Virus record (IMG/VR): IMGVR_UViG_2563366951_000006
Direction: 5' to 3' (one strand)
Length of the DNA: 47,886 nucleotides
Origin: a virus
Lineage: Duplodnaviria; Heunggongvirae; Uroviricota; Caudoviricetes
Positions within the stretch are counted from its first letter, which is position 1. Every line of letters begins with the position of its first letter. The translations under genes were made by a program, and so were the position numbers. Below the pieces are notes generated by a model. That model saw only the letters and a list, made by a program, of their open reading frames with translations. It was not told where the DNA came from and did no database searches. Below are positions 698-43,914 of this stretch, piece by piece.

Positions 698-1060
698 GGG
701 GCTGATTCTGGATTCGACGGGATTTGCGAAACCCAAGGTGCATGCCGAGGGGCGGTTGGCCTCGTAAAAAGCCGCAAAAAATAGTCGCAAACGACGAAAA
801 CTACGCTTTAGCAGCTTAATAACCTGCTTAGAGCCCTCTCTCCCTAGCCTCCGCTCTTAGGACGGGGATCAAGAGAGGTCAAACCCAAAAGAGATCGCGT
901 GGAAGCCCTGCCTGGGGTTGAAGCGTTAAAACTTAATCAGGCTAGTTTGTTAGTGGCGTGTCCGTCCGCAGCTGGCAAGCGAATGTAAAGACTGACTAAG
1001 CATGTAGTACCGAGGATGTAGGAATTTCGGACGCGGGTTCAACTCCCGCCAGCTCCACCA
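698..1060 (+). ncRNA. ssrA: tmRNA (SsrA), 363 nt
   Basis: Starts GGGGCTGATTCTGGATTCGACGGG; internal tag-peptide frame ANDENYALAA-stop at about 787..819; tRNA-like 3' end GGGTTCAACTCCCGCCAGCTCCACCA. Confidence 0.95.
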
Positions 1061-1665: not shown

Positions 1666-2286
1666 GTGCGAGTTATGTCCCTTATCTCTAAAGAAGAAGC
1701 ATTGCTGGAACTTGAACCCTATTTCCCTCTGTTGCGAAAAGCTGTACATGCTGCATGGAACTCTTGGGTTACGGGTCCAATAGCACCTCGCATGCAGCAC
1801 AAGCGCGTCCGTGCAAATCTCGTATGGAATGATTATTTTTTCGAGATGATAAAAGAACTTTCAACAGGTGAACACAAAGGCATTAGGTTTGCAAAAATAC
1901 CTTATAATCAAGGGTTTGCAGTTAATGACAGATTCTTCATTAAGTTTAAAAAGGCAGACTCCAACTTCCTTTCCTCCAACCTTCAGACTCAATCAGCTAT
2001 GAAATATCATGACCCAGAGATTGATATGTTTGGCGGAGAAGTTCGCTTAGAGTTGCTGTATGTTTTAGACGATGATGGGATCAACATTGACAAAATTGCA
2101 ATTGTTCAAAGAAAAGACAAATTTGTCGCTTGGGCAATAGATATTGAAGGCGATAATGTTGCTGAAATTCCTCATACATTTGAACCAAGCACAACCGAGA
2201 CAGCTAAAACTGTCGCGAAAAAAGTTATCAAACCTCGCAAACATGCAAAAGAAAACGTGGTAAACAAAGATGGCACAAATTCCTGA
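1666..2286 (+). CDS. Hypothetical protein (206 aa), upstream partner of the HTH-ImmA gene
   Basis: AT-rich ORF; alternative ATG at 1675; 3' end overlaps the next ORF by 17 bp, suggesting translational coupling; no family recognised. Confidence 0.55.
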   Translation: MRVMSLISKEEALLELEPYFPLLRKAVHAAWNSWVTGPIAPRMQHKRVRANLVWNDYFFEMIKELSTGEHKGIRFAKIPYNQGFAVNDRFFIKFKKADSNFLSSNLQTQSAMKYHDPEIDMFGGEVRLELLYVLDDDGINIDKIAIVQRKDKFVAWAIDIEGDNVAEIPHTFEPSTTETAKTVAKKVIKPRKHAKENVVNKDGTNS

Positions 2287-3355
2287 ATCTCTCTCTTTGA
2301 TTAGAAATGAGATGATCGAGCTTCGCCGCAGAATGCTTGGAATCAGCCAAAAAGTTTTATCAGAAAAAGTGGGAATGTCCCAAGGAACCCTTTCGAAGAT
2401 AGAACAGGGACTTAAAGCTGTAACACCAGAACAAGCTCAGAAACTTTCTGAGGCATTATCATGCCCACTAAGTTTTTTTACGATGTCAGAACGCTTATAC
2501 GGTGGGCCAATCAGCGCGGCTCCAATGTATAGAAAAAAAGCATCTGTGGGTATAAAGGTTTTAGATCGCCTCATAGCAGAGATTAATGTACGAATAGCTC
2601 ACATTAGAAAACTTCTTCAGTTCGTTGATTTTGAACCAGAGTTTGAATTACCTTCATATGATCCTGACGACTACAACGGTGATGCGACTGAAATTGCAAG
2701 AAATACGCGAAAAAGTTGGTATATGCCCGCAGGTCCGGTGAAAAACTTGATCGAGGTTCTTGAAAGAGCTGGATGCTTAATAATCGAGTGTGACATGGAT
2801 GACACTGGCTTATCTGGGGTTAGCTACAACCTTCCAGGATTACCACCGATTATTTTCATCAACAGAAATCAGCCCCTTGACAGATATCGTTTTACACTAG
2901 CGCACGAGCTTGGCCATTTAGTCATGCATAAATCGCCCAATCCAAACATGGAGAGCGAAGCTGATGCTTTCGCAGCAGAATTTTTAATGCCTGCACGTGA
3001 CATATCTCCCTATCTTCGTGATATGAGCATTGAAAAAGCTGCAACCTTGAAGCCTTACTGGAGAACCTCAATGGCCTCCGTAATTTTCAGAGCCAAAACT
3101 TTAGGATATTTAAATCAGGGACAAAATGAATATATCTGGCGTCAGATGTCTGCACGCGGATACAGACTCAATGAACCAGTACAATTATCTCCTGATAATG
3201 AAAAGCCAACATTGTTAAAAGAGATATTTGAACACGTCAAACAAGAGCTTGATTATGACGAAAGCGAATTATCGCAAGTATTCTCAATACATTATGATGA
3301 AATAGAACAACTTTACCCTATTAACAAAAAAACTGGCTTAAGATTAGTTAAATAG
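2270..3355 (+). CDS. XRE-family HTH fused to ImmA/IrrE-type zinc metallopeptidase (COG2856-like)
   Basis: N-terminal HTH (ISQKVLSEKVGMSQGTLSKIEQG); C-terminal HEXXH motif (LAHELGHLVMH) with downstream EADAFAAEFLMP. Confidence 0.8.
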   Translation: MAQIPESLSLIRNEMIELRRRMLGISQKVLSEKVGMSQGTLSKIEQGLKAVTPEQAQKLSEALSCPLSFFTMSERLYGGPISAAPMYRKKASVGIKVLDRLIAEINVRIAHIRKLLQFVDFEPEFELPSYDPDDYNGDATEIARNTRKSWYMPAGPVKNLIEVLERAGCLIIECDMDDTGLSGVSYNLPGLPPIIFINRNQPLDRYRFTLAHELGHLVMHKSPNPNMESEADAFAAEFLMPARDISPYLRDMSIEKAATLKPYWRTSMASVIFRAKTLGYLNQGQNEYIWRQMSARGYRLNEPVQLSPDNEKPTLLKEIFEHVKQELDYDESELSQVFSIHYDEIEQLYPINKKTGLRLVK

Positions 3356-30778: not shown

Positions 30779-30853
<75 letters not shown>

Positions 30854-30856
30854 ATA

Positions 30857-30932
<76 letters not shown>

Positions 30933-30934
30933 AG

Positions 30935-31008
30935 TGGTCCGCCACCGGAGCCTCGAACCCCGTACCACAACACCTGGGTTGCCGCTCTTCCCGATGAGCT
31001 AGTGGCGG
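30935..31008 (-). tRNA. tRNA-like gene with non-canonical anticodon arm (anticodon unassigned)
   Basis: Perfect acceptor (CCGCCAC/GTGGCGG), D and T arms; best anticodon-arm fold is GCAAC/GTTGT around a 6-nt loop CCAGGT. Confidence 0.5.
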
Positions 31009-31010
31009 TC

Positions 31011-31087
31011 TGGTGGCCCTTGCTGGACTTGAACCAGCGACCGGGCGATTATGAGTCGCACGCTCTAACCAACTGAGCTAAAGGGCC
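31011..31087 (-). tRNA. tRNA with CAT anticodon, Ile2-like (lysidine) or Met
   Basis: Manual fold: anticodon loop CTCATAA; resembles enterobacterial ileX as I recall it. Confidence 0.75.
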
Positions 31088-32271: not shown

Positions 32272-33108
32272 CTAAATTTCGTCACCTTCTTCGCCTAAAC
32301 TGGTTGCAGATTGAAATTCTCTTGCGGCGTTTCCCTCCTCCTGCTGACAAATGCTTACCAGCGCCTCAAGAAACGGTTTCCAGTTGCGAGTCCATGTTCT
32401 GACGTGCAGATCCGGAACGCGCTTCAGTATCACTTTATAGGCTGCGGTAGACGGCACCGCAGAAAATCCATTTCCGCTGCAGCGCTCGCAGGTTTTAAAC
32501 ACCGGCGCGCCGCGCTCGCTTGTGGCCTTGCGGTCTAGAACCTCGCCTTTACCGCCGCAACGACAACGGGCGCTGATCGTTCCCTTGCCTTCGCAAGCAT
32601 CACAGACCGCCGGTACAACCTCTGTTACCTCCATCCACTGCTCCCAGTCAGACGGTCGAACAGCACGAGAGCGGCAGGCCCAGTATGGAGCTTTACCCCA
32701 TGGGTACGAAACCTTGCGGGTAATCTGTTCGCGGGTTGTTCGTCCGGTACCACTGCAGCTGTGACACGTCACGCTTGTAGCCGCCGAACGTGAATAATCA
32801 GCAAAGGCAAATTGTGCCAACATCTGCATGCACCATCCGAACTGCCCACCAGCTGCTTTGCGAACATTCTTCGGTGCGACATCCATCGCATATCGCGCCA
32901 GCGCCTGAACTGCGAGCTGTTCATCCGTTTTGCTGATTCCCGCTTTACCGAAGAACGCCGCCAGTCCGAAGCGCGCACGGCTGCTGGTGGTGCCAATTGC
33001 CGCCATTACATCTGTTCCTGTAAGGCGGTCCGGAGAGGTTCCTTTCACGTCGTCGCTGATGTGCACACCCTGAGGGCTAAAGTGTTTTAGTGATGCTTCC
33101 AACTTCAT
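32272..33108 (-). CDS. Putative late-gene antiterminator (Q-like) with DnaJ-type zinc-finger repeats
   Basis: Four CxxCxGxG repeats (CHSCSGTG, CDACEGKG, CRCGGKGE, CERCSGNG); located upstream of the late operon. Confidence 0.5.
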   Translation of the reverse strand: MKLEASLKHFSPQGVHISDDVKGTSPDRLTGTDVMAAIGTTSSRARFGLAAFFGKAGISKTDEQLAVQALARYAMDVAPKNVRKAAGGQFGWCMQMLAQFAFADYSRSAATSVTCHSCSGTGRTTREQITRKVSYPWGKAPYWACRSRAVRPSDWEQWMEVTEVVPAVCDACEGKGTISARCRCGGKGEVLDRKATSERGAPVFKTCERCSGNGFSAVPSTAAYKVILKRVPDLHVRTWTRNWKPFLEALVSICQQEEGNAAREFQSATSLGEEGDEI

Positions 33109-33417: not shown

Positions 33418-35289
33418 TTAATACCTCGTTGCGTTGGTGGCTTCCCACTCAATATCAAGTTCACTTTGCTGTTTGCCGGCCAAGTAATTGAAGGGCCCTT
33501 TATCACCCTCGATAAACTGGTGTGAGCGGGAATCAAAGTTAGCCCCTATGTCTCCGATCCAGCCTTCCCCTTCACGTTGTTTCAACAGGCGGATCATCGA
33601 AGCGGGCATTTGGATAGCAGTCTGTTCGTCCTTATCAAGGCTCTCATACCCCATTCTTTCAGCTTTGCGCTGCGCCAGTTCGCGCGGGATATTACGCCAG
33701 ACCGCCATAACGTTGTCGGGCATGTCAGTTAAAGCGCCAGTGCCTTTTACGTCCATCTTTCCTGTTGGAGCGGAGTCGTTTGTTTTTCTGGCGTGGGTAA
33801 CCAGCAGGACGTGACAGTTATGCTCGTTCTTGAAGTCGCACAGCGTATCGATGAAGTCCTTCTGACCTGTGTAGTCTTCTTCGTCTAAGCCACATTTAGC
33901 CAGGTTATCTATGACGAACAGCTCAATGCCATAGCGACGCCGGGCATAGGCAAAAATCTCAAGAAGCCGGTCTGCTTTGGCAGTTCCGGTAAGTTTGAAT
34001 ACCCAAAGGCGGTCAGAAAACCATTCGTTGGTCATAATGATTTCTTCACGTTTCGGTGAGGAAGTGCAGATGGTTTGCCGCGTGAGTCGGGCAAGCATTT
34101 TGCCTGGTTTAAGCTCCAGAGAAGCAATACACGTCCTGACGCCCTGACTCATCGCATCAATCGCGATATGTCCAACGAGCTCTGTTTTTCCATGCCCATT
34201 AACGCCATTAACGAGGGTCAGTTCACCGGCACGGAACTTAAAGTTGTTGTTCAGCGAAGCCCATGGGCTTGTAAACAGACCGGTATCCCGATGTTCGAAT
34301 GCCTCGATAGTTTCCTGAAGCAAGTCCCCAGCTGAGCAAAGCTCATCGGGATCGAAGAATTTGGCGCGCTCCATGTATTCCAGAATGGAGTCGCTGTCCA
34401 TGCCGTTCATCAGGCAATCGTTGATATCTTTGTGGGGAAGTTCAACCATGCGGCAACGATGTTCCCCAAGACGTCTGGCGATTTCTTTTGCAGCTTCACG
34501 GCCTACATTGTCGTTGTCCAGGCACAGCCAAATTTCCTGGAAGCGATCGAGGTTATGGTATTCATATTCAATCCACTGCTGTTTGGCCCCTTTGCCACCG
34601 CCAAAGGGAACAGACAGGGCATCATAGCCAAGCTGCGTAAAGGTCATGCAATCAATCTCACCTTCGCACAGAACTACCAGGCGGGTGTTTTTATCCAGAG
34701 CCTGCCAGCCAAACAGACATGGTTCGCAATCAGCTTCAGCCATAATCAGTTTTTTGCCGTTTGGCCTTTCGGTTCCAATACGTTTTACCTGTAGCAGTTC
34801 ACCATTCCGGATGTACGGGAATGCCACTGCTGGTACCTCGCGGCTTTCGTCGTGATACCAGACCACCGCATCTGTTACCTTAAAGCGATCGGCTGTTTCA
34901 CGGGTAATGCCACGTGAAGCAAGGTAGTCATAGCATTTGCTGGCCGATTTAACGCCCTTTTTCGTCGGACGAGAGAACAGTTTTTTCTTCGCTTCGAAGT
35001 GGTGGTCGTCATCTTTCAGGCCAAGAAACTCTTTCGCCTCTCGCATTGCATCATGCAGCTGGCAGTTACGAACCAACACCCAGAGATCCAGCAGGTCACC
35101 GCTGTCACCGCTGGCAAAGTCAGCCCATGATTTTTTACCGCCGATATTGACCTTGAGGCTTTTGCCTGAGTCACCGTTCGTATTGCCAGCACACCACTCC
35201 TTCCCCTCCAGATGTCCTTTCGGAAGGAGAAACTTAGCGACGCGTTCAGCGTTATCCCATAGTTTTTCTGATAGTTCAGCTGGGCTCAT
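33418..35289 (-). CDS. Bifunctional primase/helicase (TOPRIM + DnaB-like)
   Basis: TOPRIM-like LVVLCEGEIDCMTF; Walker A GVNGHGKTE; 623 aa. Confidence 0.85.
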   Translation of the reverse strand: MSPAELSEKLWDNAERVAKFLLPKGHLEGKEWCAGNTNGDSGKSLKVNIGGKKSWADFASGDSGDLLDLWVLVRNCQLHDAMREAKEFLGLKDDDHHFEAKKKLFSRPTKKGVKSASKCYDYLASRGITRETADRFKVTDAVVWYHDESREVPAVAFPYIRNGELLQVKRIGTERPNGKKLIMAEADCEPCLFGWQALDKNTRLVVLCEGEIDCMTFTQLGYDALSVPFGGGKGAKQQWIEYEYHNLDRFQEIWLCLDNDNVGREAAKEIARRLGEHRCRMVELPHKDINDCLMNGMDSDSILEYMERAKFFDPDELCSAGDLLQETIEAFEHRDTGLFTSPWASLNNNFKFRAGELTLVNGVNGHGKTELVGHIAIDAMSQGVRTCIASLELKPGKMLARLTRQTICTSSPKREEIIMTNEWFSDRLWVFKLTGTAKADRLLEIFAYARRRYGIELFVIDNLAKCGLDEEDYTGQKDFIDTLCDFKNEHNCHVLLVTHARKTNDSAPTGKMDVKGTGALTDMPDNVMAVWRNIPRELAQRKAERMGYESLDKDEQTAIQMPASMIRLLKQREGEGWIGDIGANFDSRSHQFIEGDKGPFNYLAGKQQSELDIEWEATNATRY

Positions 35290-35396: not shown

Positions 35397-36380
35397 TCAT
35401 GGGCGATACCCGCCACGGTTCATGCGATCGATCGCTGACTGATTGATAAACACCTCGGCAGAGCCGTCATCAGACTTTGCGTACCACTCGTAGCGAGACT
35501 GGTCTTGTCGGGTAGGGACTTTGTTTTCCTGGGTCTCTACCAGCCACGGTTCATCGAAATGTTTATCCGGCCCGAAGAACGTCGCCGCCTGCTTGACGAA
35601 CGAAGTACCGATCTTTCCCTCAGAGGCCATGAAAGCTGCGTAGCGCTTAACCCCTTCCAGCATCGTCTCTGGTTTTACGCCCTGTTTAATACGTGCGTTC
35701 CAGGCTTTGAATGCGCTTAGCTTGTTATTTCCACCGCTACGTTTTGGGTATGCCTGCCAGGCTTCTTCAAATGCAGGAGAATAATCAGTTGAAGATTTCA
35801 CTTTCGGTGTGTCGGCTTCAGCCGATGCACCAAGATATTTATTCTCTGTATTAATCTTCTGTGTAGTCTCCTGGTAATCTACTGTATGAATGGATGCGGA
35901 ATTTCCACATGACTGCTCGTTGGTTTTCCCCATACCTGCATGCTGGTTTTCCGCATCACTGTTTGCGGAAATTCCGCATCCTTGTTTGTTGGTTTTCCCC
36001 ATACCTGCATGCTGGTTTTCGCCAAGTAGAAGTTCTTCCAAGCGCTCCTGGTTTACTCTGAAATATAATTTTGCTGGGATGCCACGTTTTGCTTCTTCCA
36101 GTACGCCACAGGAAACCAGCTTTTTACGCGCTCCCTCTTGTTCGTAACGCGTTAATCCAGTCTCTTCTTCGAGATCTGTCTGGGTTTTGTAGAACCAATT
36201 CCCTTCCATGCGGTTCTGCCAATAGACAATCTGTGACAATAGCAATGCACCTGTAATACCCACGCCAAGGCGAACGAAGGACCGTTGAAAGGCTATTGGA
36301 CGATCAACGAGCTGTAAGAAATTGCTCACTCCACAACCCTCCTGAAATAATTTTGAAACTTCCAGACAGGCTGCATGCAT
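35397..36380 (-). CDS. Replication initiation / replisome organiser protein
   Basis: N-terminal winged-helix-like region; internal tandem protein repeat ENQHAGMGKTN encoded by iteron-like DNA repeats. Confidence 0.65.
   Translation of the reverse strand: MHAACLEVSKLFQEGCGVSNFLQLVDRPIAFQRSFVRLGVGITGALLLSQIVYWQNRMEGNWFYKTQTDLEEETGLTRYEQEGARKKLVSCGVLEEAKRGIPAKLYFRVNQERLEELLLGENQHAGMGKTNKQGCGISANSDAENQHAGMGKTNEQSCGNSASIHTVDYQETTQKINTENKYLGASAEADTPKVKSSTDYSPAFEEAWQAYPKRSGGNNKLSAFKAWNARIKQGVKPETMLEGVKRYAAFMASEGKIGTSFVKQAATFFGPDKHFDEPWLVETQENKVPTRQDQSRYEWYAKSDDGSAEVFINQSAIDRMNRGGYRP
35891..36021. repeat. Iteron-like tandem direct repeats plus 15-bp palindrome (candidate origin)
   Basis: 33-bp perfect repeat gttggttttccccatacctgcatgctggttttc at about 35919 and 35989; palindrome tgcggaaattccgca at 35964..35978. 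Confidence 0.6.
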
Positions 36381-36523
36381 TCATGCGGATAATTCTGCCT
36401 GGTGAAGTACACCTGCTGTTTATCCCGATTCCAGCCGGTGACATGCACAATCACACCGCGCGGATCGCGATAATCGATATCCAATGGCTTAACTTGGTTT
36501 TCGGTAGTGATCGAGTGCGACAT
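36326..36523 (-). CDS. Hypothetical small protein (cII-position ORF)
   Basis: 65-aa ORF between the cro-like and replication genes; overlaps the annotated replication-gene start by 55 bp. Confidence 0.3.
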   Translation of the reverse strand: MSHSITTENQVKPLDIDYRDPRGVIVHVTGWNRDKQQVYFTRQNYPHECMQPVWKFQNYFRRVVE

Positions 36524-36524
36524 A

Positions 36525-36770
36525 TCACACCTCAGAACCGCTCTTGAAAACCAACTGTTCTTTTGTAATAACTGGCTTATTCACGAATGACTTTGATGCG
36601 CTCTCGATCGCCAATGCCAGTCTGGGGGAAGCATTGCGATGACCATAAGCAATGAGATTCAGGTATCCCGGAGATGTGCCTGATTTTTTAGCAAGATCTG
36701 CCCACTGCTCTTTTGTTGAGCACTTACGCCAAGCAAGTAATTGGTTGTTCATTACGGTCTCCTGTTGCAA
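36525..36770 (-). CDS. Cro-like HTH DNA-binding protein
   Basis: 81 aa; divergent from the cI-like repressor across an operator-containing intergenic region. Confidence 0.6.
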   Translation of the reverse strand: MQQETVMNNQLLAWRKCSTKEQWADLAKKSGTSPGYLNLIAYGHRNASPRLALAIESASKSFVNKPVITKEQLVFKSGSEV

Positions 36771-36863
36771 TGAATCAACTTTAGCTTTTTGCTAAATTAA
36801 ATGCAATAATCATTTAGCAGTTTGTGTATTTACCACATTGCTAAATAATGAGATTATTTTGAC
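36771..36863. promoter_or_regulatory. Right operator/promoter region between the cro-like and cI genes
   Basis: Three copies of the half-site TTGCTAAAT / ATTTAGCA at about 36790, 36813 and 36839. Confidence 0.55.
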
Positions 36864-37553
36864 ATGGACATAAAAAGCATACGCAAATCAAACCTTGAGC
36901 AGCTCATTGTTGAGTTCCTGAAGCGCGACAGACATACGACAAAAGCAGCTTTCGCAGAATTGTGCGGGATAAGCCCTGCCCAGTTGAGCCAGTTGCTTGG
37001 GGGCAATAGCCATCGAAACATAGGGGACAAAATGGCCAGAAAGATTGAACAGGCCTTGGATCGTCCGTTTGGGTGGCTGGATAGTCCACACAATGCTCCT
37101 GGCAGTATTAAAAGCGAGTTGGAGTATGTCGGATCAGTCCGTCCGGGAGCTGTACCAGTTGTAGGGGAAGCGATTCTTGGGATTGACGGAATGATCGATA
37201 TGCTAGAGATCCACGCTGGATGGCTACAAATATACAGCGCGGATAGGGATGCCTATGGGCTGAAAGTGAAGGGAGACAGCATGTGGCCACGCATACAGTC
37301 TGGAGAATATGTCGTCATAGAGCCAAACACCCAAGTTCATACAGGTGATGAGGTTTTTGTGCGAACAAAAGATGGGCATAACATGATAAAAATCATGAGT
37401 AAAACTCGCGATGGCGATTATCAATTCTCAAGTGTAAACAGTGATCACAGGCCCATCACCTTAAGTCCTGATAGCATCGAGAAAATGCATTTTGTTTCAG
37501 CTATTGTTAAGCATACGCGTTATGTTGACAATGATGAAATGCCCGCCCTGTAA
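36864..37553 (+). CDS. cI: Prophage repressor, CI-like (HTH + S24 LexA-type peptidase)
   Basis: N-terminal HTH (TKAAFAELCGISPAQLSQLL); C-terminal S24 motifs (KVKGDSMWP ... EVFVRTKDGHNMIKIM). Confidence 0.9.
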   Translation: MDIKSIRKSNLEQLIVEFLKRDRHTTKAAFAELCGISPAQLSQLLGGNSHRNIGDKMARKIEQALDRPFGWLDSPHNAPGSIKSELEYVGSVRPGAVPVVGEAILGIDGMIDMLEIHAGWLQIYSADRDAYGLKVKGDSMWPRIQSGEYVVIEPNTQVHTGDEVFVRTKDGHNMIKIMSKTRDGDYQFSSVNSDHRPITLSPDSIEKMHFVSAIVKHTRYVDNDEMPAL

Positions 37554-41034: not shown

Positions 41035-41233
41035 TTGCGTACCACTTTCAACCTACTGCCGGGACGCCGGAGAAACGGTTGAAGCCGTTAACAAACGGAT
41101 ACAAAGGGGGTTATGGAAAGAGGGTGTCCATGTATTAAAAGTCGATGGCGTTAAAGAACGCTGGATAGACTTAACGGAGGTTTCAAAGTGGGCAAGAAAG
41201 AACAAGGATCATTATCTCTCCCAAGAGGAGTAA
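41024..41233 (+). CDS. xis: Excisionase (Xis-like)
   Basis: ATG at 41024 with RBS gggagg; 69-aa basic protein overlapping the int start by 46 bp, as in lambda xis-int. Confidence 0.55.
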   Translation: MSLDCVPLSTYCRDAGETVEAVNKRIQRGLWKEGVHVLKVDGVKERWIDLTEVSKWARKNKDHYLSQEE

Positions 41234-42360
41234 CCATTCGCCAGCATAAAACTGGCGACACCCTGGTGATCACATTCACCTACAAGGGGGTTCTCTGCCG
41301 GGAGCCCCTTTCCAGAATGGAAGCAAACGCGCGCGGCGTGAAGTATGCCGAGCGCCTGCTGGGGGAGATACAGAATCAGATCGCCGGCGGCACATTCGAT
41401 TATGCGAAATACTTCCCCACCTCCAAAAAACTGGAGCTGTTCGGGGTAGTGAAGAAAACCAAAAATATTAAGTCCTACCTGGACGAGTATCTGAAAATCT
41501 GCCAGAACCGCAACCTTTCGCCGTCCACTATTGGCGGTTATGAAAAGTGCCTGTCTGCGCTATCTGCGCTGCACAAAATGCATGTATCGGAACTGACCCC
41601 TGCGGTCCTCAAAAACTGGATCGCCAGCAGAAAAACAAAGCTGAAAACAATCAGGAATAACCTCTCGTTTCTGCGCAGCGCCATAGATGAAGCGGTGACA
41701 GACGGCCTGCTGACTATCAACCCGGTAACCCTTGTCAGCGCGAGTCGGTACCACGTGATCGACAGCAGCCCGAATAGTGACGATTACGAAGTTGATCCGT
41801 TCACACCAGCGGAAATCAGCGCCATTTACCAGAGCTGCAGTTATCCGGAATGGGAAAACCTGTTCCGTTTCGCATTCAATACAGGTTTACGCAGCTCTGA
41901 GCTGTGTGCGTTGCGCTGGCCTGATCTCGACAATATCGCTAAAACAGCTCACGTTCAGGCGGCGAGTGTTGTTGGCGTTCTGAAAGGCACCAAAACAAAA
42001 GCCGGTACCCGTAAAGTAGAATTAAACAGCGAGGCGCTGGCCGCGCTGCAGGCGCAGAAACAATTCACTTTCATGAAAAGCGAGTTTATTTTCAGCGACC
42101 CTAAAACGGGAGAGCCCTGGGCGAACGCCGACGCAATACGAAAAAAAGCATGGGTGCCAACCCTCAAAAAAGCTGGCGTTCGATACCGTAACCCGTACCA
42201 GACCCGCCACACATTCGCCACCAGACACATTAGCCAGGGCGTAAACCTTTTCTGGCTTGCCGGGCAGATGGGGCATAAAGGGCCGGAAATGCTGTTCCGC
42301 AATTACGGTAAATACCTGGCTGAATACGACGGGAAAACCGCCATTTCAGCAGCTCTGTAG
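41188..42360 (+). CDS. int: Tyrosine integrase (prophage)
   Basis: 390 aa; C-terminal catalytic region with RHTFATRHISQG...HKGPEMLFRNYGKY (R-H-R-Y signature); adjacent to attR. Confidence 0.9.
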   Translation: MGKKEQGSLSLPRGVTIRQHKTGDTLVITFTYKGVLCREPLSRMEANARGVKYAERLLGEIQNQIAGGTFDYAKYFPTSKKLELFGVVKKTKNIKSYLDEYLKICQNRNLSPSTIGGYEKCLSALSALHKMHVSELTPAVLKNWIASRKTKLKTIRNNLSFLRSAIDEAVTDGLLTINPVTLVSASRYHVIDSSPNSDDYEVDPFTPAEISAIYQSCSYPEWENLFRFAFNTGLRSSELCALRWPDLDNIAKTAHVQAASVVGVLKGTKTKAGTRKVELNSEALAALQAQKQFTFMKSEFIFSDPKTGEPWANADAIRKKAWVPTLKKAGVRYRNPYQTRHTFATRHISQGVNLFWLAGQMGHKGPEMLFRNYGKYLAEYDGKTAISAAL

Positions 42361-42594: not shown

Positions 42595-42684
42595 TTGTCG
42601 TCCAGTGAGAATTGCTGAGAACTATCACATATGGCACCCTGAATGGGACCCACTAAGAAGGGTCCAAAAACCGAGGGTCCCAAA

Positions 42685-43914
42685 ATGGCAAAAATCGCTA
42701 AGAAGCTCACTGACACTGAAATCAAAAGCACCAAACCAGCCGACAAAGAAATCAACTTGTTTGACGGAGATGGTTTGATACTACGAATCGCTCCCCTCTC
42801 GAAAGGAGGAAAGAAGAATTGGTATTTCAGGTATGCAGTGCCAGTGAGTAAAAAAAGAACCAAAATGAGCCTTGGGACCTATCCTCACCTTACACTGGCA
42901 AGAGCCAGAGCCTTACGAGATGAATACCTTTCCTTGCTTGCTAATGGCATTGATCCCCAAGTTCATAACAACGATAAAGCTAATGCCTTAAAGAATGCTA
43001 CTGAACACACTCTCCAAGCCGTGGCAAGGAAATGGTTGGATGAGAAGGTAAAGACCTCTGGTATCTCACAAGACCATGCAGAAGACATCTGGCGAAGCTT
43101 GGAGAGAAATATATTTCCCGGCTTGGGTAAGGTTCCTATCAATGAGATCCGACCCAAACTCTTAAAGCAACATCTCGACCCTATTGAGCAACGAGGAGTC
43201 CTCGAAACCTTACGGCGAATCATTTCCCGATTAAATGAAATATTTCGCTGGGCCGCGACTGAAGAACTTATCGAGTTCAATCCGGCTGACAACCTTGGGC
43301 AACGGTTCAGTAAGCCTAAAAAACAGAATATGCCAGCATTACCCCCTTCCGAGTTACCCCGCTTCCTAATGGTGTTAAACAATGCCTCAGTTCGTATGGA
43401 GACAAGATTGCTGATTGAATGGCAATTGCTGACCTGGGTTCGTCCAGGGGAAGCCGTTCGTGCGAGATGGGCCGATATAGATACTGAAAAATCGATGTGG
43501 AACATCCCGGCTGAGTTTATGAAAATGAAGAAGCCTCACAAAGTTCCACTAAGCAAAGAAGCTTTGCGAGTCTTGGATTCAATGAAAGCCATCAGTGGGC
43601 ACAGAGAGTGGGTTTTCCCCAGTATCAAAGCTCCACTCAATCATATGCATGAACAAACAGCGAATGCGGCCATAATCCGTATGGGCTTTGGTGGAGAGCT
43701 TGTAGCCCATGGAATGAGATCTATTGCACGAACGGCCTCAGAGGAGTCGGGTAAGTTCAGGACAGATGTCTTAGAAGCGGCCCTTGCTCACTCGAAGAAA
43801 GATGAAATAATTGCCGCATATAATCGCGCAGATTATCTTGCAGAACGAGTGGTTCTCATGCAGTGGTGGAGTGATTATGTGCAAGCTCAAAGGCTAAAAG
43901 CCATTGCAGCTTAA
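42685..43914 (+). CDS. P4-type (CP4-57 IntA-like) tyrosine integrase
   Basis: N-terminus KLTDTEIKSTKPADKEINLFDGDGLILRI typical of P4-family integrases; start taken at internal ATG (track ORF from 42643). Confidence 0.88.
   Translation: MAKIAKKLTDTEIKSTKPADKEINLFDGDGLILRIAPLSKGGKKNWYFRYAVPVSKKRTKMSLGTYPHLTLARARALRDEYLSLLANGIDPQVHNNDKANALKNATEHTLQAVARKWLDEKVKTSGISQDHAEDIWRSLERNIFPGLGKVPINEIRPKLLKQHLDPIEQRGVLETLRRIISRLNEIFRWAATEELIEFNPADNLGQRFSKPKKQNMPALPPSELPRFLMVLNNASVRMETRLLIEWQLLTWVRPGEAVRARWADIDTEKSMWNIPAEFMKMKKPHKVPLSKEALRVLDSMKAISGHREWVFPSIKAPLNHMHEQTANAAIIRMGFGGELVAHGMRSIARTASEESGKFRTDVLEAALAHSKKDEIIAAYNRADYLAERVVLMQWWSDYVQAQRLKAIAA

Follow-up and report, generated by a model that had tools for sequence, protein, structure and literature searches.

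We analyzed a 47,886-nt stretch of viral DNA (Caudoviricetes; IMG/VR record IMGVR_UViG_2563366951_000006; the window, below, means this whole stretch), which is a lambdoid prophage adjoining a tmRNA gene and which carries, inside the gene of its replication initiator, an array of six 23-bp repeats. The array probably represents the initiator-binding part of the vegetative (theta) replication origin of the prophage, an origin of the oriλ type embedded in the gene of its own initiator. This assignment is drawn from sequence analysis: an AT-rich tract of short repeats directly adjoins the array, and the window holds no other motif cluster or periodic region, so that the array is the segment to be read as the origin.

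The starting point was a 33-bp perfect direct repeat, said in the original prediction to occur twice about 70 bp apart with a palindrome between the copies. The copies of GTTGGTTTTCCCCATACCTGCATGCTGGTTTTC are indeed exact; they lie at positions 35919–35951 and 35988–36020 (plus strand), are separated by 69 bp from start to start, and cannot be extended by even one base. The description of these repeats as iteron-like also stands, but the real unit is not 33 bp in two copies. Both a repeat finder and Tandem Repeats Finder give a basic period of 23 bp, and six head-to-tail units of this length fill positions 36024–35887 on the gene (minus) strand, corresponding to gene nt 306–443. A 69-bp (three-unit) duplication accounts for the 33-bp repeat: the first copy spans parts of units 5 and 4, the second spans parts of units 2 and 1, and the lag-69 identity of the array is 0.81.

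On the gene strand, the unit consensus consists of a dyad core, TG[C/G]GGAAAACCAGCA, and an 8-nt spacer. The units on the minus strand are TGGCGAAAACCAGCATGCAGGTA (unit 1, positions 36024–36002), TGGGGAAAACCAACAAACAAGGA (unit 2, 36001–35979), TGCGGAATTTCCGCAAACAGTGA (unit 3, 35978–35956), TGCGGAAAACCAGCATGCAGGTA (unit 4, 35955–35933), TGGGGAAAACCAACGAGCAGTCA (unit 5, 35932–35910), and TGTGGAAATTCCGCATCCATTCA (unit 6, 35909–35887), with pairwise identities of 57–91%. The predicted palindrome, TGCGGAAATTCCGCA (positions 35964–35978), has a 7+1+7 form with perfect 7-nt arms and one central base, so that it differs from its own reverse complement; it lies between the 33-bp copies and inside the initiator gene, as proposed, but it is the core of unit 3 and not a separate element. 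A near-copy of it, TGCGGAATTTCCACA, is found in unit 6 (positions 35895–35909). Both 33-bp copies and the palindrome fall within the minus-strand open reading frame (ORF) 35397–36380, and the tandem peptide repeat expected in the protein is present as the 23-aa sequence ENQHAGMGKTN(K/E)Q.CG.SA.

The periodicity is strong and confined to this place. The lag-23 self-identity of the array is 0.678, compared with a maximum of 0.471 over 500 shuffles of the gene, and the array is the strongest periodic stretch of the whole window, the runner-up reaching 0.514. Scanning the window with the unit motif gave 12 matches against 2.2 expected; the eight best matches (those with the fewest mismatches) are all within the array, and the 47.9-kb window contains no second cluster of the motif.

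Several features indicate that the constraint acts on the DNA rather than on the protein. The six units are read in frames 2, 1, 0, 2, 1, 0, successive units falling into different frames because 23 is not a multiple of 3, and the shared core GGAAAACCA encodes ENQ, KTN or, as a variant form, GIS. Since the units occupy all three frames, protein selection cannot account for their similarity; in 2000 protein-preserving shuffles of synonymous codons the maximum lag-23 identity was 0.652, and none reached the observed value. The number of units in relatives is 4, 5, 6, 7, or 9, which shows that the arrays are more than multiples of the 69-bp duplication. When 62 units drawn from 11 diverged genes are compared, information is concentrated in the 15-nt core TGcGGAAAacCcGCA, with short inverted arms around an A-tract, and little of it resides in the 8-nt spacer. 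The locus illustrates overlapping codes well: putative binding sites are kept in three reading frames within a protein linker.

Directly after unit 6 on the coding strand follows an AT-rich stretch (positions 35833–35886, minus strand) that encodes TVDYQETTQKINTENK and contains four 11/12-nt repeats of the form ACAGnAGAyTAC. Its GC content is 0.30–0.35 (40-nt windows, positions 35830–35889), as opposed to about 0.49 for the gene. The motif AGAnTA occurs at gene nt 450, 461, 473, and 485, and the AGAyTAC core is read in two frames. The ACAGnAGAyTAC repeat is found right behind the array in 15 diverged relatives, in which the ratio of the Glu codons GAG and GAA is 37 : 1 in the repeat tract and 147 : 194 in the rest of these genes (Fisher p = 8e-12, too strong a value given that the genes are related and not independent). 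This 37 : 1 skew, together with the reading of the core in two frames, points to a second DNA-level element, and we consider the tract at 35833–35886 a putative DNA-unwinding element.

The original prediction named absence of the repeats from functional relatives as an observation that would argue against it; the arrays are, on the contrary, widely kept. Of eight homologues from phages and prophages (Stx2 and Stx1 phages, Burkholderia BcepIL02, Vibrio Rostov 7, Salmonella F1055, Pseudomonas CF63a, E. coli EC2001, and the window itself), all eight have their strongest periodicity at lag 23, with the array placed alike in the gene; six of the eight have about 40% identity and come one per phage, and the EC2001 protein is identical save for 23 extra residues. 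The same lag is on top, at the same position, in 59/59 distinct genes from IMG/VR viral contigs. Among 80 species-level genomic relatives, ranging from Enterobacterales to metagenome-assembled genomes (MAGs) of Chloroflexota and Deltaproteobacteria, lags of 21–24 rank first in 62 (23 in 40 of them, 22 in 10, 24 in 9, and 21 in 3), while in upstream-flank controls lag 23 was on top in only 1/78.

Most of these 62 arrays are placed alike in the gene; the exceptions are the nine lag-24 arrays and a few more, which lie elsewhere in it. Nine of the 10 lag-22 cases come from Acinetobacter, in which a subgroup has this period, and lag 24 is found in betaproteobacterial (Burkholderiales) and other MAG relatives, with the array nearer the start of the gene (about nt 186). 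The phasing of the array is thus clade-specific within 21–24 nt. The unit sequence differs as well: class A N-termini (DRPIAF..., including the window) pair with the unit consensus TGCGGAAAACCnGCA, and class B N-termini (G[HR]PVAYYPGLVK, the Stx-phage type) pair with GGGAAAyCC..TTTCGCGG, the 23-nt period being common to both classes. That the unit consensus tracks the N-terminal class is the pairing expected of an initiator and its cognate sites. Array length also changes in 69-bp steps that keep the reading frame; E. coli EC2001 has exactly 69 bp more, hence nine units and a protein of 333 aa, and 333-aa forms of the initiator also occur in Enterobacter and Klebsiella.

Both iteron classes keep the ACAGnAGAyTAC repeats, as do phages whose hosts are Enterobacteria, Vibrio, Pseudomonas, and Burkholderia, and the same nucleotides also encode the peptide motif ETTxEIT. 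From this sequence pattern we tentatively suggest, as a possibility that we rate below even, that ACAGnAGAyTAC is a sequence-specific unwinding or helicase-loading element, beyond mere AT-richness, and that the 21–24-bp (mostly 23-bp) phasing may be a structural constant of the initiator–DNA complex. If so, the repeat would have a role like that of the oriC 13-mers, the DnaA-trios, or the RK2 13-mers, and the initiator, or else a conserved host factor, would recognize it as single-stranded DNA.

The gene that contains the array is a replication initiator gene, as predicted. Its product matches PHROG 9773, which bears the annotation label "replication initiation O-like" (E = 2.8e-49, aa 19–198), and PHROG 270 (E = 3.6e-48, aa 47–312). 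Searches of Pfam, NCBIfam, and PDB sequences with the initiator, the family alignment, and the C-terminal domain gave no meaningful match. The longest ORF begins at the ATG at 36380 and encodes 327 aa, and the gene as we delimit it (positions 35397–36329, minus strand) encodes 310 aa from the GTG at 36329. The choice of start differs between records, RefSeq having the 310-aa form and Escherichia phage SaltyDalty the 327-aa form, and both are present in protein databases. The GTG at 36329 is the probable start; its codon (36329–36327) overlaps the TGA stop (36328–36326) of the upstream DUF4222 gene in the sequence GTGA, which suggests translational coupling from the DUF4222 gene to the initiator.

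For the N-terminal region, an AlphaFold2 model of aa 1–110, built with 109 diverse relatives, has a mean predicted local distance difference test (pLDDT) score of 90 and a predicted template modeling (pTM) score of 0.81. It shows a winged-helix domain (aa 1–105, encoded at 36015–36329 on the minus strand) with helices at 24–38, 50–57, and 61–74, a beta-hairpin at 77–92, and a closing helix at 94–105. The array begins at aa 103, that is, at the end of the modeled winged helix (near aa 105). The model matches predicted structures of phage "replication proteins" with a template modeling (TM) score of about 0.8; the nearest solved folds include the iteron-binding RepA_N initiators and DnaD N-terminal domains, and generic winged-helix regulators score equally.

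The C-terminal domain (aa about 180–310, encoded at 35397–35790, minus strand) is marked by the conserved block YSPxFExAWQxYPKR...FVKQAATFFGP and would serve as a partner-recruitment module. Several relatives align in tblastn only to aa 152–188 and then continue with different C-termini. The C-terminal part is separable, the iterons occupy the linker that joins it to the N-terminal domain, and the N-terminus and the array behave as one module. The genes beside the initiator vary: the window has a primase-helicase gene, others have a DnaC-like gene together with a DnaB-like one, and some lack a helicase gene. A strict co-variation of the C-terminal domain with the type of helicase is not supported, because the same domain is found beside the primase-helicase in the window and beside DnaC-like plus DnaB-like genes in L042 and the Stx phages.

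In the window, the gene immediately downstream (positions 33418–35289, minus strand) encodes a 623-aa protein with Toprim and DnaB-like domains, in which Pfam Toprim_2 and AAA_25 score above their curated cut-offs and DnaB_C below its cut-off, and which matches PHROG 239 "DNA primase/helicase" (E = 5e-145). This primase/helicase is probably the replicative helicase recruited at the origin.

On this basis we propose the following mechanism, every step of which we infer. Dimers of the N-terminal winged-helix domain of the initiator would bind the dyad cores (TGCGG-N5-CCGCA type) of the six units, placed exactly 23 bp apart, and would form on them an O-some-like nucleoprotein complex. The complex would then destabilize the adjoining AT-rich stretch of 11/12-nt repeats (35886–35833), and the C-terminal half of the initiator would bring in the primase-helicase encoded just downstream.

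The comparison with lambda, whose gene O contains the origin and which the original prediction took as its model, holds for layout, order, and relative position. Each computational test of the reading as a lambda-like origin within the initiator gene gave the outcome expected from it. In the lambda record, four iterons at nt 349–433 of the 900-nt O gene, with spacings of 20, 24, and 23 bp, are followed by an AT-rich tract, and the autocorrelation scan that revealed our array gives, as a positive control, lag 24 at these annotated iterons. In both cases direct repeats with internal dyads are found midway along the initiator gene, immediately past the N-terminal DNA-binding domain (nt 349–433 of 900 in lambda, nt 306–443 of 933 here), an AT-rich tract follows the repeats on the coding strand, and the arms enclose a central AAAAC (TCCCTC-AAAAC-GAGGGA in lambda, TGCGG-AAAAC-CAGCA here). 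The initiator gene is also placed in an early operon after cro, as in lambda (PMC7466680).

The differences are equally clear. Lambda has four unevenly spaced 18–19-bp iterons, whereas the window has six strictly phased 23-bp units; the AT-rich tract here is built of conserved 11/12-nt repeats; and the partner is a phage primase-helicase instead of lambda P with host DnaB. The comparison does not extend to the protein. Neither the window protein nor its relatives match Pfam or TIGR01610, the latter a model that lambda O hits with E = 5.4e-39, and lambda O is not among the top 50 structural matches in BFVD. The likeness to lambda is therefore organizational only, there being no detectable sequence similarity to O.

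Other origins resemble the array in part. The Stx phages 933W and P27 have six-iteron origins that arose from an in-frame duplication also lengthening O (PMC7466680), and in both systems the iteron number varies between related phages (here, six versus nine units); however, 933W and P27 encode true lambda-O homologues with lambda-type iterons, and the initiator family and iteron sequence of the window are different. Other Stx phages, such as Stx2_112808 and Stx1_499, carry the class B version of the initiator family of the window. To the Gram-positive RepA_N plasmid initiators (RepA of pSK41 and pTZ2162; 4pql, 4pt7, 4pta, 5kbj) and the DnaD N-termini the identity is only 9–18%, the initiator has no Pfam RepA_N or DnaD match, and the hosts and partner proteins of those systems differ from those of the window; homology to the RepA_N/DnaD type is not established. 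The plasmid origins of RK2, P1, F, R6K, and pPS10 have arrays of ~20-bp iterons beside an AT-rich element of short repeats (13-mers), and their Rep proteins are winged-helix proteins. The window shares with them the ~20-bp repeats beside a repeat-built AT-rich tract, but in these plasmids the iterons lie outside rep and are accompanied by DnaA boxes, whereas the window array is inside the coding sequence.

Some of the data weigh against the array being an origin of this type. Units 2 and 5 (TGGGGAAAACCAAC) are weak dyads, and some close relatives carry degenerate units. An hhalign comparison of the initiator with lambda O gave a probability of 1.2–1.6%. DnaA boxes are not enriched in the window (14 versus 9.8 expected), with none in the array and no cluster nearby. 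As RNA, the array has a folding energy of −51.2 kcal/mol (z = −5.6), which would also be in keeping with a role in single-stranded form. The chief comparative caveat is a Halomonadaceae clade (Halomonas, Modicisalibacter, Billgrantia, and relatives) that has the same winged-helix domain without an in-gene array. Its proteins are well conserved, have about 215 aa past the likely ATG (open frames of 234–260 aa), and retain a remnant SITENTTQ motif; this form may be a domesticated or differently organized variant. In some members of the clade, AT-rich repeats of the TAAGAATAA/TTATTCTTA type are found some 500 bp upstream.

If the initiator bound the units mainly for control (autoregulation, titration or handcuffing, or exclusion of related phages), opening and helicase loading would take place elsewhere in the genome. 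Iteron arrays have such control functions in plasmids, nine-unit variants of the present array exist, and the Halomonadaceae proteins imply that the fold does not strictly need an in-gene array; in the six-iteron origins of Stx phages, moreover, only four iterons are bound efficiently (PMC7466680). We nevertheless regard a predominantly regulatory role as unlikely, given that the array always stands directly before the conserved AT-rich repeat tract, a juxtaposition classically seen for iterons and unwinding elements, and that the 47.9-kb window offers neither a second motif cluster nor another strongly periodic region. An even smaller probability attaches to the action of a folded single strand, either as an mRNA structure that modulates how strongly the initiator is translated or coupled to downstream genes, or as hairpins or a cruciform serving as a priming or recognition signal. 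The folding energy given above speaks for it, as do the 9/10 homologous arrays that beat their shuffles (z = −3 to −5.2) and the report that the lambda iterons are predicted to form hairpins or cruciforms, at which Lamassu is enriched during infection (bioRxiv 10.1101/2025.04.02.646746). However, any array of dyad-symmetric sites would show excess folding, the topologies vary among homologues between local hairpins and long-range pairing of different units, and one array is not above its shuffles (z = +0.35). There is no Rfam match, and a terminator-like match at the palindrome is antisense to the gene and within shuffle expectation; a promoter scan found nothing.

The least probable explanation, to which we give hardly any weight, is a tandem repeat at the protein level, in which a flexible Gly/Asn/Gln/Ser-rich linker has grown by slippage and the DNA repeat is functionless. 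The region does encode a low-complexity 23-aa tandem peptide repeat between two domains, and its copy number varies in whole 23-aa blocks. Still, neither protein selection nor 69-bp duplication alone could maintain a 23-nt sub-period in three frames, and relatives with 4, 5, 6, or 7 units are not limited to multiples of three. The concentration of information in the dyad cores across the 11 diverged genes and the agreement of the unit consensus with the class of DNA-binding domain likewise speak against a purely protein-level origin of the repeat.

Read as an oriλ-type origin, the array would give a widespread initiator family outside Pfam, NCBIfam, and PDB a concrete origin annotation, made up of iterons and a putative unwinding element. 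The family comprises 14,040 cluster representatives at 50% identity (E ≤ 1e-3). The type of element is already textbook knowledge and the principles of replication initiation are unchanged by it; the initiator family and the iteron sequence differ from the lambda O type, and the lambda layout, with the origin inside the initiator gene, recurs with very regular 23-bp phasing in a family without detectable similarity to O. The annotation could be of use for annotating prophages, for designing mini-replicons and incompatibility tools, and for reading mosaic junctions in lambdoid and Stx phages, and the array offers candidates for the DNA structures at phage origins to which defense systems, Lamassu among them, may respond. 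A literature search on the iterons of the initiator family, the motif strings, SaltyDalty, BcepIL02, and F116 found nothing on the origin, although subscription journals were mostly outside the search, so this absence is not proven; the only work bearing on the subject concerned lambda/Stx O or was a Lamassu preprint.

Two further observations concern the family as a whole. Some members of 450–620 aa match the N-terminal profile in two separate stretches and may have tandem winged-helix domains. Many database entries are "partial" proteins of 110–230 aa, and we speculate that assemblies or gene calls break at the repeat array.

The initiator lies in an operon in the order cro-like gene, DUF4222 gene, initiator, and primase-helicase, opposite a cI-like repressor, which is the arrangement of a lambdoid early operon. 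The cro-like helix-turn-helix regulator gene occupies positions 36525–36770 and the DUF4222 protein gene positions 36326–36523, both on the minus strand upstream of the initiator; the divergent cI-like repressor gene (HTH_3 + Peptidase_S24) is at 36864–37553 on the plus strand, and a Q-type antiterminator gene (32272–33108) lies downstream of the primase/helicase gene. By analogy with pR transcription through oriλ, transcription from the cro-side promoter would traverse the array. Over the 1.2-kb initiator region, the window shares 99.3% identity with SaltyDalty and 98.3% with a prophage in E. coli MS 115-1, and the exact window protein occurs on 808 contigs, mostly of Enterobacter, under the names "hypothetical", "replication protein", or "primosomal protein I".

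The cI/cro-like intergenic region (36780–36846) contains TTTAGC-N6-GCTAAA palindromes at 36780–36797, about 36811–36824, and 36829–36846, which are probably the immunity operators. These palindromes are unrelated to the units, and an assignment of the latter as CI/Cro operators was rejected.

The tmRNA (ssrA) gene is located at positions 698–1060 (plus strand) at the left end of the window, and the prophage apparently extends from about 1.1 kb to a tyrosine integrase gene at 41188–42360. A second integrase gene (42643–43914) comes next, and after it an ORF of >1215 aa that has AAA_11/AAA_12 (SF1-helicase-like) domains and continues past the end of the window (47886); the arrangement suggests that another island follows in tandem. 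Downstream of the Q-type antiterminator gene, the prophage carries four tRNA genes (30779–31087, minus strand), namely Gly-tcc, Thr-tgt, one for which ARAGORN gives an odd 2-nt anticodon call (30935–31008), and Met-cat. Near the ssrA end, an ORF at 2270–3355 (plus strand) combines HTH_3 with Peptidase_M78 (IrrE-like), an architecture typical of anti-repressor proteases of the ImmA/IrrE type.

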